Below are positions 8,333-42,075 of a stretch of DNA of 64,000 bases, one piece after another. Within the stretch, counting starts at the first letter, position 1. Every line of letters starts with the position of its first letter. The notes beneath the pieces are model-generated. The model searched no databases and was not told the DNA's origin. It worked only from the letters and a program-made list of their open reading frames with translations. The translations under genes were made by a program, and so were the position numbers. Source of the stretch: Escherichia phage Ecwhy_1; sequence record MH791411.1, one strand, 5' to 3'.

Positions 8333-8674
8333 TTATTCGAAATCTTCTGGACCGGACTGATAATCATCTTCACCGTATGCACTTTCTAACCGCTCGCCAG
8401 TGTGATCATCAGTTAGTGAGTCATCCTCATAGTTCACGTCTACGCCAGTGATGTAAAACTGGCTATCGTCTGGATCATTGAAATTAATTTTCTGTATGTT
8501 TACAATAACTGTATTGATGCCCAGGACACCGCCATCAGCCGTTACAAAGTACTGATAGTTTTCGCAACCGCCTGAATTGAAACCGTAATTAATTTCGGCC
8601 CGACCATCATTTAAACGCAGTGCCTGGGCGATGATTTCGTTTTCAAAGTTAGATTGAGCAATTGAGATAGTCAT
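8333..8674 (-). CDS. hypothetical protein (113 aa)
   Basis: trimmed to MTISIAQ after hairpin read-through. Confidence 0.55.
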   Translation of the reverse strand: MTISIAQSNFENEIIAQALRLNDGRAEINYGFNSGGCENYQYFVTADGGVLGINTVIVNIQKINFNDPDDSQFYITGVDVNYEDDSLTDDHTGERLESAYGEDDYQSGPEDFE

Positions 8675-8760
8675 GATTTGTTTCCTTATTACCAGGGGAA
8701 ACCGTTTCCCCCTCTCGATGTAAAACATTATACGCTTATTGAGATAGTTTGCAAGTACTT
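8675..8760 (-). promoter_or_regulatory. PeSL-like cassette
   Basis: promoter + GGGGGAAACGGTTTCCCC hairpin. Confidence 0.6.
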
Positions 8761-8784
8761 TCTACAAATACTTTTAAAATAGTT

Positions 8785-8905
8785 TTCAGTACTCAATACT
8801 CATATAATAGATACACTTATGCACCCTGTGGGCTAGTGAGCTATCTCTCAATGAATATATAATAGCAAAATGGCTGACCGGAGTCAACCACTTTTTTCAT
8901 TTATT
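8785..8905. repeat. conserved ~120-bp intergenic element, copy 3
   Basis: GCACCCTGTGGGC box + TGGCTGACCGGAGTCAACCA hairpin + T6. Confidence 0.6.
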
Positions 8906-9126
8906 TTTAGCTTTTAGAATCGCCGCCTTTCGCGTCATGCCTTGCTTGATGTATTCTTGTACTTTCGCTTTACGTGCATTCGCTTTATTTGCTTTCGTAA
9001 ATGCCGAACAACTTTTATAGTTTAAACCTGTTGGATTCATTTAAATCACCATAAAGAATAGATAGGTTACTAACAACGCCGCGATCAATGCACCGACCAG
9101 GGCCGAACTATAGTAAGCTAATGTTT

Positions 9127-9576: not shown

Positions 9577-9786
9577 CTAATTGCAAGTACTATTTGAAAG
9601 TAAATGCTCATACGCTGCATTAACTACGTTTTCAATAACCGACTGTACAGAAAGATCCCCCACGTCCTGGCTATAGTAGAAATCGCTTACAGTGGTGTCA
9701 TCGTATGCAAATACTTTACCAGGTACTGCATCAATCACATACATATTAACCTTTAAGATGTCGATCTTATCCTGTACAGTAAGCAT
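9577..9786 (-). CDS. hypothetical protein (69 aa)
   Basis: ORF track. Confidence 0.55.
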   Translation of the reverse strand: MLTVQDKIDILKVNMYVIDAVPGKVFAYDDTTVSDFYYSQDVGDLSVQSVIENVVNAAYEHLLSNSTCN

Positions 9787-9791
9787 ATTAA

Positions 9792-10064
9792 TTAACCTTT
9801 TAAGTACTGGCTTAAGTAGTCTTGTTGATCTTCGGTGATTGCAGCCATCTTCCCTAGTACTGGATTAATGATATAATCCCCTGTAACGTCCTGTAACGCA
9901 TTCTCAGGCGGTTTAACGGCTGGGGTAGCCATAGCCATCGCCTGGACTTGTTCGACGCTATAACGCTCATATAGGCGGCATTCTTCCGGTGTTAACATAG
10001 CATCAATGCGTTTCATTGGTTTAATGATGCTTTCAACTTCATTCAGTACTTGATTAACGTTCAT
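9792..10064 (-). CDS. hypothetical protein (90 aa)
   Basis: ORF track; ATG. Confidence 0.6.
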   Translation of the reverse strand: MNVNQVLNEVESIIKPMKRIDAMLTPEECRLYERYSVEQVQAMAMATPAVKPPENALQDVTGDYIINPVLGKMAAITEDQQDYLSQYLKG

Positions 10065-18420: not shown

Positions 18421-18612
18421 TAGCCGTCTATACTTCCAGACGTGTAACCATCTAGCCGTTTAGCCGTCCAAACGTCTAGCCATCCAGCCATCCAGAAATC
18501 TAGCCGTTTAGCCGTCTAGATGGATAGCCATCTTTACTTCCAGACTTCTGGAGGGCTAGACATATCTACGCCCAAAATCCATCCAGGGTAACTACGCCCA
18601 AAATCCGTCAGT
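18421..18612. repeat. iteron-like array of interleaved short direct repeats
   Basis: TAGCCGT x5, CCATCCAG x3, CTACGCCCAAAATCC x2, ACTTCCAGAC x2; locally GC-richer. Confidence 0.65.
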
Positions 18613-19629: not shown

Positions 19630-19836
19630 TTACTTCCTATATATAAGCATTAACATATAGTAGTACTGATTATGCTGTACATTCTCTTTAATATTATAAG
19701 GGTCTATAGCAATCTCGGTACATCTGTTAAATGCATATCTATTAAATGCCAGTACTATTATAGATCTAATCCATGCTTGGTCAGTCGGTGGTAGTTTACT
19801 TATATAGTACTCTTTATAGTTTTTTATGTTCTGCAT
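19630..19836 (-). CDS. small paralog family member (68 aa)
   Basis: family: N-term M-N-x-K-E-(F/Y)-Y, C-term hydrophobic ..LIYR-like. Confidence 0.6.
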   Translation of the reverse strand: MQNIKNYKEYYISKLPPTDQAWIRSIIVLAFNRYAFNRCTEIAIDPYNIKENVQHNQYYYMLMLIYRK

Positions 19837-19847
19837 AGTATACCTTA

Positions 19848-20039
19848 TTATTTCAAAGTACCATATAGTACTCTTAATAGGAAGTAGTACGTATTAGAGA
19901 TATCATTAGTAGTTAAAACAATCTTTGTACACATATTAAATTCGTATTGAGTCATTGCCAGGGGGATTAAATTGTTAACCCATGCTTGTTCGTTTTCTTT
20001 TAGTTTACTTATATAGAAATCTTTATGTTCTTTATTCAT
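19848..20039 (-). CDS. small paralog family member (63 aa)
   Basis: MNKEHKDFY..; tightly packed with neighbours. Confidence 0.6.
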   Translation of the reverse strand: MNKEHKDFYISKLKENEQAWVNNLIPLAMTQYEFNMCTKIVLTTNDISNTYYFLLRVLYGTLK

Positions 20040-20241
20040 ATAGGAATAGTATACCTATGATGCCGGAGTACATATTAGTACTGTTATTATTGTCGTTTGC
20101 GTTTAAAGTCATTTGAATACAATTATTGTAGCATACTCTGCCGAAATAAGTATCAGTACTTAAAGGTGCTGTAGTCCTTAGAAACATTTGTTCTGTGGGG
20201 CTGAGGTGTTTGGAGTAGAATTCTTTATGTTCTTTATTCAT
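20032..20241 (-). CDS. small paralog family member (69 aa)
   Basis: MNKEHKEFY.. Confidence 0.6.
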   Translation of the reverse strand: MNKEHKEFYSKHLSPTEQMFLRTTAPLSTDTYFGRVCYNNCIQMTLNANDNNNSTNMYSGIIGILFLYE

Positions 20242-20246
20242 ATTAG

Positions 20247-20432
20247 TTAGTGTCTGTATATAAGTAATAGTAAGAATACGTACTGCACCTGTTCATCTTT
20301 AGTATTGAGTACTGTACGTATTGCGTCATGGAACAAGAATATAGTACTTGGGTCATTAGAATTTAAGGGGTTTACGGGGACGGCGTGTTTGTAGTTCCCT
20401 TTAACAAATTGTGTGTAGTATTCTCTATGCAT
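20247..20432 (-). CDS. small paralog family member (61 aa)
   Basis: MHREYYTQF.. Confidence 0.6.
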   Translation of the reverse strand: MHREYYTQFVKGNYKHAVPVNPLNSNDPSTIFLFHDAIRTVLNTKDEQVQYVFLLLLIYRH

Positions 20433-20433
20433 A

Positions 20434-20622
20434 TCAGTACCTATATATTAGGGCGAGAATGTAGTACAGTTTATATGTATTATAATCTGGGTTGATAGCA
20501 CATAGTGTGTGGTAGTGGAATTGTTTGGTATTTTTCTTATCCTTGATATCTATTGGGTTTAGTGGTATAAGCATTTGGGAGTTTAGTTCCAGATGGTTTA
20601 AGTAGAATTCTTTGTTATTCAT
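20434..20622 (-). CDS. small paralog family member (62 aa)
   Basis: MNNKEFYLNHL.. Confidence 0.6.
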   Translation of the reverse strand: MNNKEFYLNHLELNSQMLIPLNPIDIKDKKNTKQFHYHTLCAINPDYNTYKLYYILALIYRY

Positions 20623-20821
20623 AGAAGAATATTAGTCCCATTACGCCTGAGTACTGAATATTTTTGTTATTGTTTTCTAAAGCTTCTAGAGTAATACGTA
20701 TACAATTATTAAAGCAATCTCTGGCGTGTGGTGTATCTAAACTTAAAGGTGATACACTCCTTAGAAACATTTGTTCTGATGCACTGAGGTGTTTGGTGTA
20801 AAATTCTTTCTGTTCGTTCAT
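20615..20821 (-). CDS. small paralog family member (68 aa)
   Basis: MNEQKEFYTKHL.. close paralog of 20032 gene. Confidence 0.6.
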   Translation of the reverse strand: MNEQKEFYTKHLSASEQMFLRSVSPLSLDTPHARDCFNNCIRITLEALENNNKNIQYSGVMGLIFFYE

Positions 20822-20831
20822 ATTGGCCTCT

Positions 20832-21020
20832 TTAGTACACGAAAGCTAGGTACAGGGTATGATACAGTACTCGATGATAGCTATCAAAATCTAGTATACA
20901 TGCTTTAGTGCACATAGTAAAGTACACTTTATCGTTTTGAGCATTGATACCGCGAGGTTTATCTAATAGATTAGTACTGAGGTACATTGGGAAATATTTT
21001 GTGTAGTATTCTTTATGCAT
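20832..21020 (-). CDS. small paralog family member (62 aa)
   Basis: trimmed to MHKEYYTKYF. Confidence 0.55.
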   Translation of the reverse strand: MHKEYYTKYFPMYLSTNLLDKPRGINAQNDKVYFTMCTKACILDFDSYHRVLYHTLYLAFVY

Positions 21021-21021
21021 A

Positions 21022-21210
21022 TTAGTACCTGAATATAAGTAGGATAGTGTTATATAATTGGTCATAGCTACTACTATTTTCTATACTGCGTTCTATGCAA
21101 TTATTGAATCCCAGTACTGCCAAATCGTTATCCAGGGGGACTTTATATCTGGCGTAGTGTTCAAAAATACTGGGGAGAAATTGTGTGTAGTATTCTTTGT
21201 GGTTGTTCAT
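21022..21210 (-). CDS. small paralog family member (62 aa)
   Basis: MNNHKEYYTQF.. Confidence 0.6.
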   Translation of the reverse strand: MNNHKEYYTQFLPSIFEHYARYKVPLDNDLAVLGFNNCIERSIENSSSYDQLYNTILLIFRY

Positions 21211-21211
21211 A

Positions 21212-21403
21212 TTAGTACTTATATATTAGTAAAAGGATGTGATACAGTACTCTATTATAGTCCTCAATATCTATCGAGGATTTAGTGCACTTAATGAAAT
21301 AGTCTTTTTCGTAGTCTTTTTCTATACTCAATTGTTTTGTTGGTACAAGGTGTTGGAGATACATTGGGAGTTTCTCTATGTAGTATTCTTTGTGGTTATT
21401 CAT
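21212..21403 (-). CDS. small paralog family member (63 aa)
   Basis: MNNHKEYYIEKL.. Confidence 0.6.
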   Translation of the reverse strand: MNNHKEYYIEKLPMYLQHLVPTKQLSIEKDYEKDYFIKCTKSSIDIEDYNRVLYHILLLIYKY

Positions 21404-21411
21404 ATTATGTG

Positions 21412-21585
21412 TTATTTCGTGAAAACAAGGGTTAGTACTGCATAGTACAAGTCATACGTATCTTTAGGGTTAATAGCACCTTTAATACATTCTTTCATTA
21501 CTTCATTATAGATAATTTTAGTACTGAATGTATTGGATGTTACTATATCGGAATTAAGGTACGAGAGGTAGAATTCTTTATACAT
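21412..21585 (-). CDS. small paralog family member (57 aa)
   Basis: trimmed to MYKEFYLSYL. Confidence 0.5.
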   Translation of the reverse strand: MYKEFYLSYLNSDIVTSNTFSTKIIYNEVMKECIKGAINPKDTYDLYYAVLTLVFTK

Positions 21586-22237
21586 AGTTTGTAATATACG
21601 TAATGAGGTGATGAAATTTCTTATCAGTACTGATAAGTTCCTGTACATGTTTTGTTAGTTTGTACGCGTTTTTATAGAGTCCTGGATTATCGATTACAGT
21701 ACTGTACATGAATTCTTCTTCCTCGGATAATTCTTTGTGTTCTAGTTCTTTGAGGAATTGCAGTACTGTATCAGTTTCGTTAGTACGTTGCTTTTGGAAG
21801 AAGTGCATGTTATCGTGTATTTTTTCTGAACCCATGCAGTACATATCGCCGATTTGGAATTGTGCAGTACTGATATCATGGGTGCTATTACAATTCCCGA
21901 AGAAGTATACATTCCCGAAAGATAGAATTATAGTGCACGGGATATTATCCATGTGTATATAGATAGATGCATTCTTTAGTGCTTTTGTGCTGGTATTAGT
22001 ACTCAATACTTTTAAATCAGTATTATAGATATTAATAAAAGCAAGAGCTATATTATTTTTCTTCAAGTACGATTTGAGGTTCTTAGATACGAGAACATTT
22101 CTGGATTTTTTCTTTTTATTTCGTTTCTTTAGTACATTTGGGTCGTAAGTATATACTGGTGTAAAAGATTCTGCTTGAATACTGTTGAGGTATTTAAAGT
22201 GCTTAAGGTATTGTTTACTGTGTGCATTAAGTTTCAT
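21578..22237 (-). CDS. hypothetical protein (219 aa) embedded in small-paralog array
   Basis: ORF track; no recognisable motif. Confidence 0.55.
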   Translation of the reverse strand: MKLNAHSKQYLKHFKYLNSIQAESFTPVYTYDPNVLKKRNKKKKSRNVLVSKNLKSYLKKNNIALAFINIYNTDLKVLSTNTSTKALKNASIYIHMDNIPCTIILSFGNVYFFGNCNSTHDISTAQFQIGDMYCMGSEKIHDNMHFFQKQRTNETDTVLQFLKELEHKELSEEEEFMYSTVIDNPGLYKNAYKLTKHVQELISTDKKFHHLITYITNYV

Positions 22238-22248
22238 TTGGTTTTCCT

Positions 22249-22428
22249 TTATACAGATGCGAGAGCGAGGATTTCCCTGAAGGGATTATCTTTTGTTAGT
22301 GCGTGATGAATGCAGCTATTGAGATTAATATTTTTAGTACTGTTAGTTGCCAGGTTGTAGTACTTCACGAAGGTGTCGTACATGAAACGGTCTTTAATGC
22401 TTATGTGTTCTATATAGTATTCTTGCAT
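22249..22428 (-). CDS. small paralog family member (59 aa; below track cutoff)
   Basis: MQEYYIEHISIKDRF..; AAGGA SD; coordinates anchored to neighbouring ORF. Confidence 0.45.
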   Translation of the reverse strand: MQEYYIEHISIKDRFMYDTFVKYYNLATNSTKNINLNSCIHHALTKDNPFREILALASV

Positions 22429-22436
22429 ATTATTCC

Positions 22437-22625
22437 TTACATAGAGATGAGTTTCAGTACATCAATATACATATAACGTTCAGATGACATTACACGGGTA
22501 GTGATAATCTCAATCGATATATTTTTAATTCCATGTGCAGATGATTGATGGTGCTGAATAAATGAGTTGTGCATACTTTGTTCTATGTGGTTTAGTTTAT
22601 TGAAGTAGTACTCAAAAGTGTTCAT
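22437..22625 (-). CDS. small paralog family member (62 aa)
   Basis: MNTFEYYFNKL..YIDVLKLISM. Confidence 0.6.
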   Translation of the reverse strand: MNTFEYYFNKLNHIEQSMHNSFIQHHQSSAHGIKNISIEIITTRVMSSERYMYIDVLKLISM

Positions 22626-22632
22626 GTCTACC

Positions 22633-22812
22633 TTAGATTGAGATTAGTTTAAGTACTTCTCTGTACGTGTACTTTTCGTTTTGTGCTTCTACTGTACATG
22701 ATAGTAGGTATCGTTTTTTATCTCTTTTGTTCCCGACTGTGTAGTACCTTTGGAATTTATTATAGTTGTATCTATCTTTGTGCTGGAGGTTATAGATATA
22801 GAATTCTTGCAT
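22633..22812 (-). CDS. small paralog family member (59 aa; below track cutoff)
   Basis: MQEFYIYNLQHKDRY..YREVLKLISI. Confidence 0.45.
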   Translation of the reverse strand: MQEFYIYNLQHKDRYNYNKFQRYYTVGNKRDKKRYLLSCTVEAQNEKYTYREVLKLISI

Positions 22813-22820
22813 AGAGTACC

Positions 22821-23006
22821 TTATATTGCTATCAGTTTGAGTACTTCAATATATGTGCGGTACTCTGCTTTAATTAAATTTGTACACACTGTAAGGGAAT
22901 TTCTTTGTATAAGTTTATTGCCGCTTTTATACGCATTTCTCCACACATAGAGATGAGATCTTTCAGGCATAGATAGTTTATTTGTATAGTACTCAAATGT
23001 ATTCAT
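22821..23006 (-). CDS. small paralog family member (61 aa)
   Basis: MNTFEYYTNKL..YIEVLKLIAI. Confidence 0.6.
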   Translation of the reverse strand: MNTFEYYTNKLSMPERSHLYVWRNAYKSGNKLIQRNSLTVCTNLIKAEYRTYIEVLKLIAI

Positions 23007-23014
23007 ATATTACC

Positions 23015-23197
23015 TCAAATAGAGATTAGTTTAAGTACTTCTCTGTATGTGTACTTTTCGTTTTGTGCATCTCTTGTGCTTGTATATAGGTATCCTCGAC
23101 GATATTTGTTGCTCCCGTTCTTGTAGTTGAATTCGAACTTATTGTAGATGAATCTATCGCCAGGCTGTAATTTACTTAAGTACAATTCAATGCTCAT
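23015..23197 (-). CDS. small paralog family member (60 aa)
   Basis: trimmed to MSIELYLSKL; ..YREVLKLISI. Confidence 0.55.
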   Translation of the reverse strand: MSIELYLSKLQPGDRFIYNKFEFNYKNGSNKYRRGYLYTSTRDAQNEKYTYREVLKLISI

Positions 23198-23207
23198 AGT
23201 ATTCTCT

Positions 23208-23393
23208 TTACATATCAATAAGTTTCAGTACTGCTCTGTACGTGTACTTAGTTGTTAGTGCTTCTTTTATAGCAATACAGAAGTAATGTTGTTTGTCTCT
23301 TATACTACCGCGTTTGTAGTACCATACATTGGAGTTGTGGGTGTACTTGTCCCTGTCGGATAGATTTAGGTAATAGTATAATATATGATTCAT
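23208..23393 (-). CDS. small paralog family member (61 aa)
   Basis: ..YTYRAVLKLIDM. Confidence 0.6.
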   Translation of the reverse strand: MNHILYYYLNLSDRDKYTHNSNVWYYKRGSIRDKQHYFCIAIKEALTTKYTYRAVLKLIDM

Positions 23394-23602
23394 GGTAATG
23401 TAATTAGCCTTATTATGTTAAAGTACTCGGTCCCTGGTACACCTTGTAGAATATTATCAACTACATTTTCTTGGTGCAGGATTAATACATTCGGTGCGGT
23501 TCTTTTAAGGTTTTTTAAAGTACTGTATTCTTGTTTAAGGATGAACTGTACATCTTTAGGGAGAATATCTAAGTAGTACTGGTGTATGTTCATAGTTTTC
23601 AT
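23390..23602 (-). CDS. small paralog family member (70 aa)
   Basis: MKTMNIHQYY.. Confidence 0.55.
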   Translation of the reverse strand: MKTMNIHQYYLDILPKDVQFILKQEYSTLKNLKRTAPNVLILHQENVVDNILQGVPGTEYFNIIRLITLP

Positions 23603-23613
23603 ATAGTACTCTT

Positions 23614-23799
23614 TTAGAACTTAAAGATGAGGTTCATGATAGATAAGTACTTAGTTTCAGGAAATTGATGTTCTATTGCATAACGTGTCTCCAGTCTGAA
23701 GTCAAATTTATAAAAGGGACTATTCATATCCATAGGTTCATTGGGAAATGAATCTCTGTATTGTTTGTGCAGCTTACTACAGTAGAATTCTTTATACAT
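23614..23799 (-). CDS. small paralog family member (61 aa)
   Basis: MYKEFYCSKL.. Confidence 0.6.
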   Translation of the reverse strand: MYKEFYCSKLHKQYRDSFPNEPMDMNSPFYKFDFRLETRYAIEHQFPETKYLSIMNLIFKF

Positions 23800-23800
23800 A

Positions 23801-24013
23801 TTAGTGCTCGATTAAAAGGGTTAGGATGTAATAGTATTGCATACTTTCTACCCCTTGTACAGCATTTCTTATTTTATTATTCCTGTACGAGTTCAAGAGT
23901 TTAGGACAATGTTTGAAGTTTATATAATTATTTTGTGTATACAGTAGGCTTTCTCGTAGACCTTTTGTTGGTAGTGCATCGATGTAGTACTGTTCAATGT
24001 TCATAGTGTTCAT
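23801..24013 (-). CDS. small paralog family member (70 aa)
   Basis: MNTMNIEQYY.. Confidence 0.6.
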   Translation of the reverse strand: MNTMNIEQYYIDALPTKGLRESLLYTQNNYINFKHCPKLLNSYRNNKIRNAVQGVESMQYYYILTLLIEH

Positions 24014-24237
24014 AGAGCTACCAGTACTAAGATTTTTGATAATTGTTTGTTTCTATCCCCGCAGATGTTGTTGTGTAAAATGCTCACTACAAGGGTATCA
24101 AGTGCATTGTTCAGCATAAGGTTACATCCAGTACTGTTATATTTTTTTAGCTCAATTAGCCACGAACAATCCGCGAGAAATTTCCCGTACTCTAGTTCAT
24201 TTAGCGTATTAATGTAGTACTTAAGTGTAGTTGTCAT
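24010..24237 (-). CDS. small paralog family member (75 aa), first gene of array
   Basis: MTTTLKYYINTL..; AAGGAG SD; early-type promoter upstream. Confidence 0.6.
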   Translation of the reverse strand: MTTTLKYYINTLNELEYGKFLADCSWLIELKKYNSTGCNLMLNNALDTLVVSILHNNICGDRNKQLSKILVLVAL

Positions 24238-24343: not shown

Positions 24344-25492
24344 ATGTTACCTTTTGTTAGAATGTTTGATTATGGGAATGAAGCACCTACCAACTCTGGG
24401 CGTTTTAAAATATATTCCAGTGATTCTATGTATCTTCATGATACTTATACTGACAAGTTGTATGCATCTTCTGCGACGAATTGGGGTACTGGTACAGGTG
24501 TAGCATCGAGTAAATTTATTCTTTGTGCGGAGAATGTTAAACGAGTTCTATTGGAAGATAACAGTAGTGATTGTCAATTGTATGAAGAGAAAGGTACTGG
24601 AAAAGTTTTTATCACTGGTAACACGAAGGCATTCACTGGTGTAACTGATAGAAAAACTTTGTGGACGGACTGTACTACGTGGATAACATCAAGTGGTATT
24701 AATGTTTCTGATATAAAATACATGAGTAGTTTTTATGATATGAAGGTGAATTTGATAACAAACGATGGTACATTGTATTGTTGTGGAGCTAACAATATAT
24801 CGAACATATCATCATTTGGTGATGGCACAAACATTAATTCTTTTAACACATTCAAAAGAGTAGATACTATAACTTCGGTTAAAAAGGCAGTTGGTAACAT
24901 TTATTTGCGAGAAGATAATACTTTATGGGGTTGTGGTTTTAACTATTACTACCAGTTGGGCACGGGTAATCAAACTTCTATTACTGGGGTGACGATGATT
25001 TCTTCGGATGTTATAGATTTTAATGTAAGTTATCAGAGTACATTTTTTATCAAATCGGATAATAATTTGTACGCTTGTGGTAAACAGTTCGGTGCACAAT
25101 ATGGGAACGAATTTGGTACAGGTGGTACTTCTACATCTACAGATATACAATATAAAACTCCCACATTATTGAGTGCAGGTGTTTATAGTTTATATACTTG
25201 TGTTGGTAACATGGCATCACATATAGTTAAAGGTGATGAAGTACTTTATGCATCTGGAAGCAACTCGTCTGGTCAATTAGGTGTTGGTAATAATAATAAT
25301 CAGTACTCCTATACTCCTTCATATACTTCGTTTAATACCTCTTGTAATTTGGTACGCACCCCATCTGGTTCACTTATACTTACTGATACTGGAAAATTAT
25401 ATTATTGTGGCCTTGCAATAGTAGTAATGGGTGGTATTTCTGGACAGAACGTTCTTAATTATACAGAAGTCGATATGTCATTTTTGCAGTAA
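24344..25492 (+). CDS. RCC1-like beta-propeller repeat protein, array member 1
   Basis: N-term MLPFVRMFDYGN; YYYQLGTGN and GQLGVGNN blade motifs. Confidence 0.85.
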   Translation: MLPFVRMFDYGNEAPTNSGRFKIYSSDSMYLHDTYTDKLYASSATNWGTGTGVASSKFILCAENVKRVLLEDNSSDCQLYEEKGTGKVFITGNTKAFTGVTDRKTLWTDCTTWITSSGINVSDIKYMSSFYDMKVNLITNDGTLYCCGANNISNISSFGDGTNINSFNTFKRVDTITSVKKAVGNIYLREDNTLWGCGFNYYYQLGTGNQTSITGVTMISSDVIDFNVSYQSTFFIKSDNNLYACGKQFGAQYGNEFGTGGTSTSTDIQYKTPTLLSAGVYSLYTCVGNMASHIVKGDEVLYASGSNSSGQLGVGNNNNQYSYTPSYTSFNTSCNLVRTPSGSLILTDTGKLYYCGLAIVVMGGISGQNVLNYTEVDMSFLQ

Positions 25493-25559
25493 ATTAATAT
25501 GCCAGTACTTGATACTGGCTTTTTTGATTAAATATAGTATAATGAATAAAGGAGGAAAT
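25493..25559 (+). promoter_or_regulatory. array intergenic cassette: terminator hairpin + TATAAT + AGGAGG
   Basis: GCCAGTAC-TTGA-TACTGGC + T-run, TTGATTAAATATAGTATAAT, AAAGGAGG. Confidence 0.65.
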
Positions 25560-36577: not shown

Positions 36578-37714
36578 ATGTTACCTTTTGCAAGAATGGT
36601 TAAGTACGGGAATATAAAAGTAAAGAGTACTATACAAAAAGTTATACTTGGTGGTGGTGGTCAATGTGTGGTAACATTACTCAGTGATGGTAGAGTGTAT
36701 GGACGTGGTTACAACACTACACATGGGTTAGGTACTGGTACAACAACATTCGTAAGTGATTGGGTATTAATGGGAGATAATATTGTTGATATCCATTCAA
36801 ATGGTGTTACTGGAACATTCCTTATTACCAAAGAAAATAGAATATTGTATTCTGGTTTTGCGACACCAATCAATGGCACAACATCACATTATACACGTTT
36901 CACTGATTTAACATCAACTGTATTTGCTGCGGTGGATGTTAGTAATATTAAAACAATTACGGGAAATGGTAATGTTACAATGGTTCTTTTGAATGATGGT
37001 TCACTTTATGGGAGTGGTGCAAATATAGGGGTTATAGGTAATGGTAGTAACGTTGCATTATCAACACAAACATATGTGACTAATGATGTGCGTGATGTGA
37101 AAACATATCCATCAATGAACACTATAACAAAAAATAATAATCAAATATTGGCTAGTGGTATTTTATACCAAGGCGTGAACGGTACAAATTCATCAATAAA
37201 CACGTCTTCATATACATTACTGTACACATTACCGAGTTCTGATTGTTTTCAATTTGCATTTGATACATATACATTTGGATATGTTGACCCTAGTACTAAC
37301 ACTTCTTATATAAGAGGTATACCAATAAATGGTTCATTAGGTAATGGCGTTACTAATAATACAGCAGTTACAACATGGGTTACTAAAGTTTGGAATACAC
37401 CAATTGATAGTTCTATACCTAATAAATCATATACAACTAACCATGTCTCCTTGTTCAATGATGGAAACTTATGGACAACTGGTGCATCTAGTGTAGGTTA
37501 TTCCAATGGTACAAATAGCACAACAGCTAATACATGGACCAGTTCATCTAATTTACCATTCAACACTAATAACATAACAGACTATGCTTTTGGTGGTAGT
37601 ATTACTGTAGTGGTAATCGACTACAGGACTATGTACATACTAGCTAACAACGCCATTGCTGGTACTGCTACGACAACTTATAAATTTGAGCCATATAATT
37701 CTCCACCAGTTTAA
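36578..37714 (+). CDS. RCC1-like repeat protein, array member 11
   Basis: MLPFARMVKYGN. Confidence 0.8.
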   Translation: MLPFARMVKYGNIKVKSTIQKVILGGGGQCVVTLLSDGRVYGRGYNTTHGLGTGTTTFVSDWVLMGDNIVDIHSNGVTGTFLITKENRILYSGFATPINGTTSHYTRFTDLTSTVFAAVDVSNIKTITGNGNVTMVLLNDGSLYGSGANIGVIGNGSNVALSTQTYVTNDVRDVKTYPSMNTITKNNNQILASGILYQGVNGTNSSINTSSYTLLYTLPSSDCFQFAFDTYTFGYVDPSTNTSYIRGIPINGSLGNGVTNNTAVTTWVTKVWNTPIDSSIPNKSYTTNHVSLFNDGNLWTTGASSVGYSNGTNSTTANTWTSSSNLPFNTNNITDYAFGGSITVVVIDYRTMYILANNAIAGTATTTYKFEPYNSPPV

Positions 37715-37746
37715 TATAATGCCAGTACTATGTACTGGCTTTTCTT
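37715..37746. terminator. terminator hairpin between convergent genes
   Basis: GCCAGTACTATGTACTGGC + T-run. Confidence 0.6.
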
Positions 37747-38397
37747 TTACATATTATATAATGTGAATGCAGTCACTTTACCAGTTGTTGTTAGTTCATT
37801 ATAAAGATACTCCAAGATTCTCGCACACTCTAAGTATATCTCGATATCATCATGAATAAGTGAGTACTGAAATAGCTGTTCTTCAGGTAATTTGTATTGA
37901 CTTCCTTTTAATGAATTGAGAATATCTTTCACATCATCAAGTACTGGGTAAAGTACGAAATCTTCATCATATTTTGAAGCAATAAATTCAAATCCACCAC
38001 CATCAGTACTAGATATACCAATCAGTACTTTATCAATCAAGTTAATGTTTATATAACGGTTGTGATTTGGGTGAATTGAAATCTCAAACATAAGAGTACT
38101 GTTACAATCAACATCAATATACAAATATACATCATTGAATTTATAAGTTAAGCAACCGTACTCAAGAAAATCAGAGCAAATAATTGATGAGTTTTTTCTC
38201 GTCTCTGCGTAATGCATCTTGATATTCTTTTCACGCATAAGTAATTCGAACTTTGCACTAAACTTGCCACCAGCAAGATAGTTAGTATTAGGACGTTTGT
38301 AACTTGCAACTGGTCGGTGGGATGATGTAAAGTATTTTTTTGTGAATCGTTTATGTTTAGTGAAATATTCTTGATAGAACTTACTTCTTTTATTCAT
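37747..38397 (-). CDS. hypothetical protein (216 aa), opposite strand inside array
   Basis: ORF track; GAGGT SD; divergent from array member 12. Confidence 0.6.
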   Translation of the reverse strand: MNKRSKFYQEYFTKHKRFTKKYFTSSHRPVASYKRPNTNYLAGGKFSAKFELLMREKNIKMHYAETRKNSSIICSDFLEYGCLTYKFNDVYLYIDVDCNSTLMFEISIHPNHNRYININLIDKVLIGISSTDGGGFEFIASKYDEDFVLYPVLDDVKDILNSLKGSQYKLPEEQLFQYSLIHDDIEIYLECARILEYLYNELTTTGKVTAFTLYNM

Positions 38398-38474
38398 GAG
38401 TACCTCAATTAAATCGCTGTAAAATTGTACATTATAAAATGATTAAATAAAGTATAACACAAGGAGATTTTATC

Positions 38475-39599
38475 ATGTTACCTTTCGTATTGTTATTTGA
38501 TTATGGGAACGAAAAACAAGAAAGTTCTTATGATGTTAGTGTATATGGAAACAATAACTACATTTTAAATAAACAAACTGGAAACCTTTTTGCATCCGGT
38601 GCTGCGGCATTCATGGGTGATAACACAGTTAAGTATTATATTACCCAAATAGAATCAAATGTTCATAGCTGTGAGATAGGTTTCCTATCATCATGGATAA
38701 TTAAGAAGGACAAAACTGTTTTCATTTTAGGAAACAAAAGCAGTATAGGATTAACTGGTTCGACAACATCATGGTTCGAAATTACAAATTTATTTTCTGC
38801 TGTTCCTGAAATATGGGACAACCTATTTGAATGTAAAGTTCAATTGGGATATAACTGTATACGTGTTATGACACCACTAGGATCAATCTATGCGATTGGT
38901 ACAAACACTTATGGTGCATTGGGTACTGGTACTACATCCTCATCAACTTCGTTCGTTAAAAGTGGTGCTGTGGATGCTGTACGCATGGAATCAACAGAAC
39001 GTTCAGTGTTCTATCAAAACAGTTCTGGACAATGGTTTGGATGTGGTGATAACACATATGGTATACTAGGTCTAGGAACTACCGCGAGTCGTGTAAACTC
39101 ATACACCGCACCAGTATGGACTAATGCAGAAGCTGTTAGCTTCTCTAACCGTGGGATCATATACAGCCTCAATGGTACTCTATACTCATGTGGTGACAAA
39201 GTTAATGGTCAGCTAGGGGATGGATATACACAAAGCATAGACGCTGCCAGGAGCACACCATACACCATAGGAACCGCATTCCAAATTGGTAAGGCAATAA
39301 CATCAGCTACACAAGCATCAGCCAACGTATTCATTGGTAAAGATAATAAGTTCTATGGTACTGGTAGTATTGCTGCTGGTATAAATGGTAGTGCTAGTGC
39401 TGCATTAAGTAAAGTTACTGCGTTATCAGCATCACTACCACCTGACATTACATACAATGATATTATAACATTTAATACAGGGACCGTAACTTTTATTCAA
39501 GCAAAAGGACAACTATATTATGTTGGTAGAAGAACTTACATAGATAATAGTTCAGACGTTACCACACAGTTCAGTGTAATTGGTGGCTTAGATAATTAA
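38475..39599 (+). CDS. RCC1-like repeat protein, array member 12
   Basis: MLPFVLLFDYGN; NTYGALGTGTT, NTYGILGLGTT, VNGQLGDGY. Confidence 0.85.
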   Translation: MLPFVLLFDYGNEKQESSYDVSVYGNNNYILNKQTGNLFASGAAAFMGDNTVKYYITQIESNVHSCEIGFLSSWIIKKDKTVFILGNKSSIGLTGSTTSWFEITNLFSAVPEIWDNLFECKVQLGYNCIRVMTPLGSIYAIGTNTYGALGTGTTSSSTSFVKSGAVDAVRMESTERSVFYQNSSGQWFGCGDNTYGILGLGTTASRVNSYTAPVWTNAEAVSFSNRGIIYSLNGTLYSCGDKVNGQLGDGYTQSIDAARSTPYTIGTAFQIGKAITSATQASANVFIGKDNKFYGTGSIAAGINGSASAALSKVTALSASLPPDITYNDIITFNTGTVTFIQAKGQLYYVGRRTYIDNSSDVTTQFSVIGGLDN

Positions 39600-39635
39600 A
39601 ATTAATCCAGTACTATTATAGTACTGGATTTTTTA
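39600..39635. terminator. bidirectional terminator candidate
   Basis: TCCAGTACTATTATAGTACTGGA hairpin flanked by T-runs between convergent genes. Confidence 0.6.
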
Positions 39636-40007
39636 TTATAACATACGTTTTTTACGAATAGTATTGTGGATATTTTTTAAGTAGTTCACACCTTTACACA
39701 ACCCATAAAATACACCAGCACATACACCAAATGCAGGTATCATACATGCAAACATCGTTATCAATTCCCACATCTCCATGCCATCTTGATTCGGTCCAAG
39801 GTCAAAGATAACAACCGAAACCAAACCTGTGATACTTAGCATATAATATGCCATGAAGATAATAAAAGAAACAATACCAACGTCAGATTTTACTGAATTT
39901 AGCATATTATATACTGGGGTTACACAGAAGTAATACAATAACCAAATCAAAGAACCTAAACTAAACACAATAATAGTAATGATTGAAAATATTTCACGAT
40001 AACTCAT
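39636..40007 (-). CDS. small polytopic membrane protein family, member (123 aa)
   Basis: 3-4 hydrophobic segments; basic C-terminus. Confidence 0.65.
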   Translation of the reverse strand: MSYREIFSIITIIVFSLGSLIWLLYYFCVTPVYNMLNSVKSDVGIVSFIIFMAYYMLSITGLVSVVIFDLGPNQDGMEMWELITMFACMIPAFGVCAGVFYGLCKGVNYLKNIHNTIRKKRML

Positions 40008-40008
40008 T

Positions 40009-40371
40009 TTAGTCCCTCGTGCCTAAACGCTCATGGATTTCGGAAATCTTATGATACATCCACGCCAGCAACTCAACGGATGCACAGAGAATAACCACAC
40101 ACAGTGTTAGTGAACATACCATAATACCAAATGTTATAAAATTCGAACTCGATGTTAATAATGCAACCAGCATTAGAATAAAACCAAAATTGAATGCTGT
40201 ACTCAACACAGTATATGCTGGACTATATCTCCTTTGTATTACATCATATATATTTGATAATGGTCGCTTATGGAAGTACTTCCCAATGCACACGAATGCA
40301 TTCAGTGAGAAGATAAATGTATACGCCATTACCATTAATTGACCAATAAAAGATAATTCAATATTATTCAT
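40009..40371 (-). CDS. small membrane protein family member (120 aa)
   Basis: hydrophobic segments; tightly coupled. Confidence 0.65.
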   Translation of the reverse strand: MNNIELSFIGQLMVMAYTFIFSLNAFVCIGKYFHKRPLSNIYDVIQRRYSPAYTVLSTAFNFGFILMLVALLTSSSNFITFGIMVCSLTLCVVILCASVELLAWMYHKISEIHERLGTRD

Positions 40372-40372
40372 G

Positions 40373-40744
40373 TTATCCTCGTTTGCGGTATTTGATGCTT
40401 TGGTGCATTCTCTGAAAATGTGGAACTAATACATATTGTACGGTTTGCCAAATTACCATCAGATTATGGACAGCACCACCGAGTAGACCAAACACTACAC
40501 AGATAATTGCCAGTACTGGATCACCATCTACCATACCCCATTTGAATATATGTAAAATCCATACAGTGATAAGTAGTAATAAACTAATCCAATACGTAGT
40601 AAAAAATCCTGCATGTAATTCATAGTCATCAGCAATTTCATCGTATACGGTTTCCAAGAAGGATACACAGAAGAACTTGCCAATAATAACAATTGTACTA
40701 ATAAACAACATAGCAGTTAATATAATAAGTGCAATTTCCATCAC
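40373..40744 (-). CDS. small membrane protein family member (123 aa)
   Basis: hydrophobic segments; tightly coupled. Confidence 0.65.
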   Translation of the reverse strand: MMEIALIILTAMLFISTIVIIGKFFCVSFLETVYDEIADDYELHAGFFTTYWISLLLLITVWILHIFKWGMVDGDPVLAIICVVFGLLGGAVHNLMVIWQTVQYVLVPHFQRMHQSIKYRKRG

Positions 40745-41055
40745 ATCCCTCGTTTACGCTTTTGATTGCGTCTAAATTCGGTTAGCCCACGAGTAATCGG
40801 TGGCATCAGACTACATAAAAAAATAACAGTTGTTGGTAATAACATGAAGTCAATCATTGCTGTATTAACAGGTGGTTCACATATCAAATAATACAAGCAA
40901 GTAATACTAATTATGGTTGACCCAATAAAAGGAATACAAAATTCTTTTATCTGTTTTTCAACATAATCAAACATCTTCAGTACAAATAAAAATCCAACCC
41001 AACACATAATAAAATAGAATGAATAAAGCGTGTAAATCAATGTTACGATATCCAT
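40741..41055 (-). CDS. small membrane protein family member (104 aa)
   Basis: hydrophobic segments; overlapping stop/start. Confidence 0.65.
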   Translation of the reverse strand: MDIVTLIYTLYSFYFIMCWVGFLFVLKMFDYVEKQIKEFCIPFIGSTIISITCLYYLICEPPVNTAMIDFMLLPTTVIFLCSLMPPITRGLTEFRRNQKRKRGM

Positions 41056-41393
41056 TAGTACCTCGCATCAGGAACTTTAGCACGTAATTTATGAACGACT
41101 GGGAACAACAACAAACTTACATATGCAATAGTTGAACCCCAATAGAATACTAATATAATTGGTTCACCATTGGAACGGAACCCTCTACTAATCATTGAGT
41201 AGTGAATAATTGGCATAATCATCGCCATACCAAACCATGCGTGTAATTTTAATTGCAACAGGTGTTCAGAGATGAATACTGAAATTGGTCGTTTGAAGAA
41301 CCACATAAGAAAGTAGAATCCAGCACTAAGAATATAGTACATAATACTAACTTTCATATACCACGGCAGTAAGTGTAAAAAATATTCCATCAT
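41055..41393 (-). CDS. small membrane protein family member (112 aa)
   Basis: C-term LRAKVPDARY. Confidence 0.65.
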   Translation of the reverse strand: MMEYFLHLLPWYMKVSIMYYILSAGFYFLMWFFKRPISVFISEHLLQLKLHAWFGMAMIMPIIHYSMISRGFRSNGEPIILVFYWGSTIAYVSLLLFPVVHKLRAKVPDARY

Positions 41394-41737
41394 TCCTCCG
41401 GTATCTTGTTTCGAAGTTCAATCATAACACAACAAATTTTAATGGTCAAGTAAAAAACTACACATATCATACCCAATGTACCGTAAACTGCGGAGAATGC
41501 TGGCAGTACCTTTCCTGTGAGTGTTGCTACAATACATGCTATCAATGTTGATGCAAACAACGATTGATTAATGAAAGAATTCATAAAATCTTCACCATTA
41601 CGCTTATAGAATTGTCGTTTAAAATACCATCCTAGAAACATAACTACCCAAAATGTTACATAACCTGTTAGAATAATCCCTGCAATTGAATGTGCAACAG
41701 AACTACTCTTTAAAAACTCAAGATAAGATTCAAACAT
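41390..41737 (-). CDS. small membrane protein family member (115 aa)
   Basis: C-term LRNKIPEE. Confidence 0.65.
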   Translation of the reverse strand: MFESYLEFLKSSSVAHSIAGIILTGYVTFWVVMFLGWYFKRQFYKRNGEDFMNSFINQSLFASTLIACIVATLTGKVLPAFSAVYGTLGMICVVFYLTIKICCVMIELRNKIPEE

Positions 41738-42075
41738 TAGAAGTCCCCACGAATTTTTGCTCTACCATTAATGATGAGATTAAACAAGTATATCAGCACC
41801 CAAATTAGTAATCCAAGGAATACAATATATTGTGATATTGAGTTCAACTGTGGATTAGCACAATAAATTAAGTGTGCGATAAGACCAACAATTGCAAACA
41901 TACCTTGGATAATAGTGAAAAGAAGTAGTGAAATGTTTCCATCAGGATACAGTTTGAAAACGATTTTCTTTTTAAAATACCATAGTACTACAACTAGTGC
42001 ATGATAAAAGAAAAAACCAAACAGATAAATCAAAGTAATACTAAGCATTGTATCTGAATTAAAAAACTCAAGCAT
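41737..42075 (-). CDS. small membrane protein family member (112 aa), first of operon
   Basis: AGGAG SD; TTGACA..TATAAC promoter upstream. Confidence 0.65.
   Translation of the reverse strand: MLEFFNSDTMLSITLIYLFGFFFYHALVVVLWYFKKKIVFKLYPDGNISLLLFTIIQGMFAIVGLIAHLIYCANPQLNSISQYIVFLGLLIWVLIYLFNLIINGRAKIRGDF

Follow-up and report, generated by a model that had tools for sequence, protein, structure and literature searches.

The 216-aa minus-strand gene that lies between members 11 and 12 of the RCC1-like array of Escherichia phage Ecwhy_1 is probably a vertically inherited resident, marking the distal array boundary in all Asteriusvirus, and the window (the whole 64-kb stretch of DNA analysed here) would differ from other genomes by an indel of member 12. 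According to this reading, the gene would always run antiparallel to the array and in the same direction as the minus-strand genome backbone, and the lineage of the window would possess an extra RCC1 paralog (member 12, with its degenerate half-cassette) between the 216-aa gene and a terminal hairpin. Because member 12 lies beyond it, the gene looks like an insert that splits a cassette, and a preliminary description had presented it as an insertion into the array. What appears to be inserted would instead be a conserved boundary gene, and the lineage-variable part would be the RCC1 copy behind it.

Genome context and features of the locus

The window belongs to Asteriusvirus and comes from a 121Q/PBECO4-like jumbo coliphage. 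A megablast search with positions 36500-39700 returned 34 phage records, all from Escherichia or Salmonella jumbo phages of the 121Q/PBECO4 group; nine of these, the closest being WPEC3, were collinear with the window across the whole 3.2 kb, with identities of 95.7-99.2%. Twelve RCC1-like genes, all co-oriented, were found in the window, the remainder of which is occupied almost wholly by minus-strand genes. Neither tRNAs nor, at gathering score, Rfam families were detected anywhere in it. Paralog pairs within the array are about 25% identical, and orthologs from different phages 72-100%. Orthologous members are ordered differently in the window, PBECO4 and JNE01, array content varies even among phages at least 98% identical, and the last RCC1 member is decayed in phAPEC6, G17 and JP4. 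The ortholog of member 11 was confined to the clade of the window (best match elsewhere, 28%), and no orthologs of members 11 and 12 were found in PBECO4 or JNE01. The features of the locus are listed in Table 1.

Table 1. Coordinates of the features discussed (positions in the window; a dot in the strand column marks features given without a strand).
Feature	Position	Strand	Remarks
RCC1-like members 1-6, true starts (ATGTTACC, MLPF...)	24344, 25560, 26741, 27999, 29201, 30381	+	
RCC1-like members 7-12, true starts (ATGTTACC, MLPF...)	31631, 32853, 34116, 35356, 36578, 38475	+	
RCC1-like member 11, 378 aa	36578..37714	+	starts MLPFARMVKYGN; Pfam RCC1-like domain match; last member before the break
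Left half of split cassette	37721..37748	.	palindromic hairpin GCCAGTACTATGTACTGGC (37721-37739) and T-run TTTTCTTTT
216-aa gene, PHROG 34359	37747..38397	-	ATG start; ortholog of 121Q gp233, PBECO4 gp297, phAPEC6 gp011c
Unique 5' region of the 216-aa gene, 43 bp	38398..38440	-	RBS, left direct repeat AATTAAATC, TATAAT-like hexamer
Left direct repeat AATTAAATC	38407..38415		within the 5' region of the 216-aa gene
Right half of split cassette	38441..38474	+	degenerate promoter-like box GATTAAATAAAGTATAAC and RBS AAGGAG, for member 12
RCC1-like member 12, 374 aa	38475..39599	+	Pfam RCC1, E 3.8e-13
Right direct repeat AATTAATCC	39600..39608	.	bounds the 1.19-kb member 12 segment
Terminal array-type hairpin AATCCAGTACTATTATAGTACTGGATT and T-run	39604..39637	.	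terminator scan; 121Q DNA homology resumes here
Seven tandem small hydrophobic protein genes	39636..42075	-	same orientation as the 216-aa gene

The 216-codon reading frame was exactly as previously described, and it was rightly called the sole break in the co-oriented array: no other credible gene is encoded on the minus strand from 24344 to 39599, where the remaining ORFs of that strand lie inside RCC1 genes. At about 31% GC, an open frame of this length would be expected by chance with a probability of roughly 1e-8 (a rough estimate). The start codon is conserved, with a GAGGT Shine-Dalgarno sequence (ACCTC on the plus strand, 38402-38406) located 4 nt upstream of the ATG, and the frame is open across the 34 phage records, at 29-99% amino-acid identity. 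A further form of the protein, 72% identical, was found on a 169-kb metagenome contig (lineage L008), and comparison of the two genes gave a dN/dS of 0.20 and a dS of 0.77. This is a genuine gene under purifying selection. Its GC content of 31.2%, versus 33-37% in its neighbours, constitutes no compositional anomaly. It is already annotated as 'hypothetical protein' in every relative; the literature reports multicopy RCC1-like genes and differences between close phages, and does not discuss the 216-aa gene.

The intergenic cassette and its hairpins

Members of the array are separated by a standard cassette, with the order stop codon, hairpin (A/G)TGCCAGTACnnnGTACTGGC, TTTTCTTTTT, GATTAAATATAGTATAAT, GAATAAAGGAGG and ATG (MLPF...). 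The hairpin motif was observed 12 times in the 64-kb window versus 0.03 expected, always within the array (11 of the 12 copies immediately after array members, and one inside member 4). Likewise, the promoter-like GATTAAAT box was observed nine times versus 0.28 expected and was confined to the array. When IMG/VR was scanned for the hairpin, chance singletons were returned, and the sole exception was 121Q itself, one contig of which carried five sites.

The gene was said to occupy the place of such a cassette, and the cassette proved to be real and cleanly split, with the hairpin and T-run on the left and the GATTAAAT half on the right. The left hairpin is the same element as that found after other array members; it resembles an intrinsic terminator for member 11, was flagged on both strands by the terminator scan and, on the minus strand, directly follows the stop codon of the 216-aa gene, which overlaps the end of the T-run (the last T's and an A). 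The right half, in which GATTAAATAAAGTATAAcacAAGGAG (38441-38466) precedes member 12, is indeed diverged, as had been noted for the region upstream of this member: its box is the sole copy with an A in place of a T, and compared with the standard cassette it shows TATAAC instead of TATAAT and a 3-nt deletion. Between the two halves, there is nothing but the ORF and its unique 5' sequence of 43 bp.

The left and terminal hairpins (folding energies of -12.4 kcal/mol, z -4.6, and -15.7 kcal/mol, z -6, respectively) both have, with their T-runs, the form of a plus-strand intrinsic terminator, i.e., a G+C-rich stem-loop and a U-run, and are predicted as such. The proximal, array-side hairpin is present in most lineages and missing from the 121Q/PBECO4 form. 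The terminal hairpin is kept directly upstream of the homolog in 121Q, PBECO4, ph0011 and three loci from metagenomes and IMG/VR, with a variant form in JNE01. In 121Q, PBECO4 and ph0011, it consists of AATCCAGTACT...AGTACTGGATT and a T-run, 14-18 nt upstream of the start codon of the homolog; in the three 121Q-type loci from IMG/VR and JGI metagenomes, its distance to the homolog downstream is about 40 bp, the same arrangement as in 121Q. The plus-strand T-run is present even in genomes in which no plus-strand gene precedes it, so the 216-aa gene could have been embedded between RCC1 members in an ancestor.

An ancient insertion might account for this anatomy. In a common ancestor, the gene, or a small minus-strand block, would have entered the cassette between the last two RCC1 members, at the boundary between the T-run and GATTAAAT. 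We regard such an event as possible, though unlikely. The two cassette halves are complementary, with only one T missing, as a clean insertion would leave them, which speaks against residence from the outset; every lineage also has an array-type hairpin beyond the gene, with its T-run on the plus strand, and this terminal hairpin may once have served as the terminator of an RCC1 gene that was lost. On the other side, the gene shares the orientation of the minus-strand backbone as well as its pattern of divergence. An ancient insertion would be compatible with long-term residence and would not change the present nature of the locus.

Distribution and position of the gene in Asteriusvirus

Exactly one homolog of the 216-aa protein was found by tblastn in each of the 34 Asteriusvirus records, with an identity of 94-99% in nine records, 43-46% in the 121Q/PBECO4 clade, and 29% in JNE01 and Turkey5. 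In SD-1_S14 the gene may be naturally truncated. In the lineages compared, the homolog stands at the distal edge of the array and antiparallel to it, with a terminal CCAGTAC hairpin beyond. With respect to the small-gene cluster and the end of the array, it occupies the same place in 121Q, PBECO4, ph0011, phAPEC6, G17, JP4 and SD-15_S21, with no RCC1 gene behind it. In 121Q, gp233 comes directly after the small minus-strand genes gp224-232, with which it is co-oriented, and is convergent with the last RCC1 gene, gp234; in both 121Q and PBECO4 the last RCC1 gene and the homolog overlap by 20 nt. In JNE01 and Turkey5, the homolog lies within a minus-strand block of three genes, beside two unrelated ORFans (118 and 69 aa); this block ends the array, again with no RCC1 gene behind the homolog. 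An RCC1 gene beyond the homolog was observed only in the nine close relatives of the window and in metagenome lineage L008/L009. fEgEco12, WPEC3 and EC.P1 count as type A phages, and 121Q and phAPEC6 as type B. The junction strings checked were identical in WPEC3 and EC.P1. In L008 the array-side RCC1 gene is a different paralog, yet the junction sequences are near-identical to those of the window. No empty site was found in the 34 records or in the metagenomic loci, and a search for more lineages of the gene in IMG/VR and JGI metagenomes returned 121Q-type loci only.

Since every Asteriusvirus carries one homolog at the array edge, the gene appears to be an old resident and not a recent insertion. 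Its divergence is in keeping with this. Identity to 121Q drops stepwise towards the 216-aa gene, from 96% (a 256-aa ATPase-like gene) through 81-92, 83, 73 and 63 to 45%. All genes of the neighbourhood are far from JNE01 (31-59% for the neighbouring minus-strand genes and 29% for the 216-aa gene), which is the most distant genome for each of them and serves as the local outgroup. Judging by these identities, the divergence of the gene tracks that of the adjacent minus-strand genes, a pattern that is backbone-like, not cargo-like.

The preliminary description had proposed a homology search of the protein and a comparison of the junction in relatives, and neither turned out in favour of a recent insertion. 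Homologs were found only in Asteriusvirus, within PHROG 34359, with no foreign source: among 5.8 billion protein clusters, none lay beyond Asteriusvirus (seven clusters found), and an exhaustive profile search of 1.84 billion representatives returned only the three known types and one spurious repeat protein. The latter, the giant repeat protein P0009, reached an E-value of 1.5e-9 summed over 14 repeats, and was rejected as an uninformative, low-complexity beta-repeat likeness to residues 101-156. As for the junction, relatives have the same gene at the array end, and the element that varies is member 12.

We therefore consider it extremely unlikely that the gene is a recent insertion into the array in the lineage of the window, foreign or mobile in origin and moron-like in bringing its own promoter and terminator, as a strict reading of the preliminary description would have it. 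Such an event would fit the opposite strand of the gene, the hairpin terminator on one side and the spacer with promoter-like hexamers on the other, and the fact that the nearest relatives outside the clade are just 45% identical. It is contradicted by the single copy at the same boundary in 34 of 34 relatives, by ordinary GC content and purifying selection, by the lack of homologs outside Asteriusvirus in the searches above, and by the age of the pair formed by the 216-aa gene and member 12, which is older than the split from L008 (dS of about 0.77). Moreover, no mobility gene or target-site duplication was found beside the gene, the flanks being complementary cassette halves without a repeat, and no transposase, integrase or recombinase is annotated near the array in the 35-kb WPEC3 locus. 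The closely related fEgEco12 is reported to have neither lysogeny-associated proteins nor transposases (PMC13070987). Of the earlier claim, the split-cassette anatomy stands as fitting an insertion; a recent or lineage-specific one does not hold.

Member 12 as the lineage-variable segment

Member 12 was found by tblastn (E <= 1e-10) in nine phage records only; it has an ortholog, 88% identical, in L008 and shares about 25% identity with each of the other array members. At the locus of the homolog it is missing from the 121Q, PBECO4, ph0011 and JNE01 types. DNA homology between the window and 121Q includes member 10 (93%), is lost at 36619 and starts again exactly at 39601, at the hairpin that follows member 12 (84% onward). 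Relative to L008, dS is 0.78 for member 12 and 0.77 for the 216-aa gene; given these equal values, the two have been together since the split from that lineage.

The extra segment measures 1.19 kb (about 38416-39607) and comprises the rest of the spacer, the half-cassette and member 12. A direct repeat of 8 bp, AATTAA(A)TC, flanks it, and joining the repeat copies yields the junction and length of the ph0011/121Q type, CAT-RBS-(A/T)ATTAATCC-hairpin; the stretch from the RBS to the repeat can be aligned to the 5' UTRs of the homologs in ph0011 and 121Q. As read from these alignments, what distinguishes the lineages is the presence or absence of this 1.19-kb segment with member 12, and the 216-aa gene itself is not part of the indel. 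We also considered whether the 25 nt between the left repeat and GATTAAAT (38416-38440) are a decayed copy of the terminal hairpin, an origin that would have implied a hairpin-mediated insertion of member 12; the alignment was no better than those of shuffled sequences (p about 0.5), and this candidate was rejected.

A short direct repeat may be the footprint of a repeat-mediated deletion as well as of an insertion duplication, and a gain of member 12 here and its loss in the 121Q and JNE01 types are close to equally probable. A gain is the more parsimonious history on the local tree, JNE01 being both the most distant genome and one without member 12. Conversely, the direct repeat and the lack of any transposase favour a loss, as does the plus-strand terminator that stands orphaned in genomes of types B and C.

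The same evidence bears on an ancient insertion of the 216-aa gene, under which the arrangement in the window would be ancestral and the distal RCC1 gene would have been deleted in the 121Q/PBECO4 and JNE01 lineages, with the terminator hairpin left behind. The 8-bp repeat around member 12 is the usual footprint of a repeat-mediated deletion, no duplication-making transposase having been seen, and RCC1 members are easily lost, as indicated by the variable content at >= 98% identity and by the decayed last members mentioned above. However, two independent losses of member 12 would be needed versus one gain, with the local outgroup lacking this member, and no GATTAAAT or member 12 remnant was found at the type B and type C junctions. 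Vertical inheritance of a boundary gene remains the reading that we prefer.

Transcription of the locus

The own divergent promoter attributed to the gene is a candidate at the level of a consensus. A TATAAT -10-like hexamer is indeed present on the minus strand at 38436-38431; it is a consensus match, not conserved in L008 (72% identical), a caveat that also applies to the resident reading, and sigma-70-like sites are not enriched in the region (17 found versus 25 expected).

The sequence TATAAATA, the T4-type late-promoter consensus, is strongly under-represented in the window (3 sites versus 13.7 expected). The sites are located just upstream of genes, namely member 1 (24309) and genes annotated in WPEC3 as virion structural genes (53118 and 54360). 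In the virion proteome of phAPEC6, six RCC1-like proteins were detected, and gp011c is not in the list (PMC7247149, Table 1). The siting of TATAAATA and this list suggest that the array is probably late and virion-associated, and that the 216-aa gene is not.

The array would be transcribed late, starting at the TATAAATA promoter that precedes member 1 and at the cassettes within the array. The hairpin at 37721-37739 would stop the member 11 transcript and also end the convergent 216-aa mRNA. In the window, the upstream minus-strand operon would be separated from the 216-aa gene by the terminal hairpin and member 12, and transcription of the gene would have to start within the 77-bp divergent spacer or close to it. 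In genomes of the 121Q type, where the terminal hairpin lacks a minus-strand U-run, read-through from the small-gene operon can reach the homolog.

The 216-aa protein

The protein matched the PHROG 34359 profile over its full length (E 2.4e-55; residues 3-216 versus profile positions 5-214 of 220), a family annotated as 'hypothetical protein'. No Pfam family was found at E <= 0.1, including RCC1 (PF00415, PF13540 and PF25390) and MAM33; members 11 and 12, unlike this protein, do match Pfam RCC1. NCBIfam, PADLOC and PDB gave no sequence match.

Residues 1-70 are strongly basic (18 K/R, pI 10.4), and residues 121-216 are acidic (pI 4.2). The AlphaFold2 model, built with nine sequences, had a mean pLDDT of 70.6 and a pTM of 0.71. 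It showed a helix (residues 48-56), seven consecutive strands (59-151) and four C-terminal helices, with low confidence for residues 25-39; the predicted fold is one sheet with helices, not a propeller. Homeodomain matches obtained with a first, poorer model did not persist, and a BFVD fold search returned only the protein's own fragment. The product is predicted to be a non-virion protein with a basic, poorly modelled N-terminal segment of 70 residues and an acidic domain of seven beta-strands and helices. With low confidence, we suggest that it adopts an acidic fold resembling p32/MAM33 and acts inside the cell as a binding or regulatory protein. The p32/gC1qBP/MAM33 fold has an acidic surface, an N-terminal helix, a seven-stranded antiparallel sheet and C-terminal helices, and its members are trimeric, multi-ligand binders.

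Significance

The value of these observations is mild: the expansion, contraction and shuffling of the array gain an indel mapped to the base pair, an 8-bp repeat and a fixed landmark. The 216-aa gene emerges as a genus-specific, fast-diverging and probably non-virion ORFan tied to the array edge, and as a candidate for functional work. No long-standing question is opened by them.

Comparison with known systems

Phage morons are autonomous units of promoter, gene and terminator located between the genes of phage operons, a concept that arose from lambdoid phage genomics. The 216-aa gene is similar in being a single gene between co-oriented members, preceded by promoter-like hexamers and followed by a terminator hairpin. 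Unlike morons, it is genus-wide and not patchy, shows no compositional difference, and belongs to a lytic jumbo phage, and its promoter is putative.

Integron cassette arrays, in which each ORF is associated with a palindromic attC site, resemble the RCC1-like array in that co-oriented single-gene units each carry a palindrome, order and content vary, and one unit is inverted. Seen in this light, the CCAGTAC/GTACTGG palindromes might be sites at which RCC1 units are exchanged, with the minus-strand block, of one gene in the window and three in JNE01, as a captured non-RCC1 cassette. The sequence of the stem, beyond its structure, is invariant in all copies, including terminal hairpins with differing flanks, while the loops vary; RCC1 orthologs differ in order among the window, PBECO4 and JNE01; and in JNE01 two hairpins bracket the three-gene block, including its two unrelated ORFans. 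Nevertheless, we judge such a capture very unlikely. No integrase or other recombinase is annotated near the array (no tyrosine recombinase in the 35-kb WPEC3 locus) or reported in fEgEco12. The palindromes are short, perfect stems with a T-run, in the form of intrinsic terminators, and each RCC1 unit has a promoter-like box. The conserved 70-bp spacers and the conserved first 36 nt of each gene offer sufficient homology for ordinary homologous recombination. Finally, the only indel mapped, that of member 12, has its breakpoints beside the hairpin and not inside it. It is a long shot, barely less improbable, that the palindromes serve cassette shuffling that diversifies a virion-associated RCC1-like repertoire, with the captured 216-aa block encoding a product that might act on the array or its products; if true, a lytic jumbo phage would possess a cassette-shuffling system, and the palindromes would be more than terminators.

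The protein itself is not a member of the RCC1-like family, with neither a Pfam RCC1 match nor a propeller in the model. With p32/gC1qBP/MAM33 there is no profile match at E <= 0.1, and a possible likeness would lie in the modelled helix, seven strands and C-terminal helices. As a boundary gene, it resembles 121Q gp233, PBECO4 gp297, phAPEC6 gp011c and G17_00082 in length, in strand relative to the array, in distal-edge position and in the terminal hairpin upstream; the 121Q-type genomes differ from the window in that the homolog comes immediately after the genes for small membrane proteins and has no RCC1 gene behind it.

Order of the RCC1-like genes

Between phages, orthologous RCC1-like genes were 72–100% identical, and paralogs shared about 25–30% identity. 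The order and number of orthologous members differed among the window, WPEC3, PBECO4 and JNE01 (loci L005 and L006 listed): the fourth member in PBECO4 corresponded to member 1 of the window, and members 9 and 10 had traded places. This variation in otherwise orthologous genes implies that the array shuffles, most probably at its conserved 70-bp intergenic cassettes.

Member 6 exhibited a frame break, with codons 1–59 (MLPF...LYMRG) in one frame and the remainder (GNQSAKMGVTG...) in the +1 frame, with a single surplus base. The same break was present in PBECO4, the JNE01 ortholog was annotated without its N-terminus, and the protein was otherwise 97–100% identical. Taken together, these observations speak against a decaying pseudogene and favour either putative programmed +1 frameshifting or initiation at an internal start.

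Features and their coordinates in the window, unless a relative is named
Feature	Position	Strand	Description
TAGCCGTC tandem repeat	18421–18519		8-bp unit, about 12 copies, 64–72% matches
Small-ORF run	19630–24237	-	about twenty contiguous ORFs, 59–78 aa
TATAAATA sites	24309, 53118, 54360		each just upstream of a gene
RCC1-like array	24344–39599	+	members 1–12
RCC1 member 6	30381–31560	+	surplus base near 30505–30512
Hairpin sites	25502–39627		CCAGTAC...GTACTGG
Seven-gene run	39636–42075	-	back-to-back genes, 104–123 aa each
ORFan, JNE01 (L003)	8636–8989		118 aa, flanking the homolog
ORFan, JNE01 (L003)	9629–9838		69 aa, flanking the homolog
Gap, phAPEC6 (L010) and G17 (L007)			unannotated, 430–480 bp, at the RCC1 gene adjoining the homolog
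Fragments, JP4 (L011)			at the RCC1 gene adjoining the homolog

Hairpin stems

The stem sequence of the terminator-like hairpin was invariant across almost every copy and lineage, even where the flanks of terminal hairpins differed, and the loops were variable. No compensatory changes were detected in the stems of the window's 12 sites or of loci L002, L003, L005 and L012 of related phages, so the stem would be kept either by homogenisation or by sequence-specific recognition.

Locus of the 216-aa gene in related phages

The RCC1 gene adjoining the homolog of the minus-strand 216-aa gene was decayed or missing in several 121Q-type genomes. In Salmonella phage SD-1_S14, the homolog itself retained only about the first 110 residues; either it may be dispensable in this phage, or the truncation is an assembly error. 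Both ORFans were located beside the homolog, inside a hairpin-bracketed block, in JNE01 and Turkey5; no relatives of either were detectable in the window or in 121Q.

Flanking gene runs and late-promoter-like sites

Each protein of the seven-gene run contained about three hydrophobic helices, with mutual similarity barely present, and identity to 121Q dropped stepwise from 92 to 63% toward the RCC1 array. The small-ORF run, whose sole interruption was a 219-aa ORF (PHROG 29152), ended where it met the first RCC1 gene in divergent orientation. The surroundings of the TAGCCGTC repeat were otherwise ORF-poor.

Finally, TATAAATA, the T4-type late-promoter consensus, was strongly avoided in the window (3 sites versus 13.7 expected). 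Of the genes following these sites, one was the first RCC1 member, and the other two carry a virion structural protein annotation in WPEC3.
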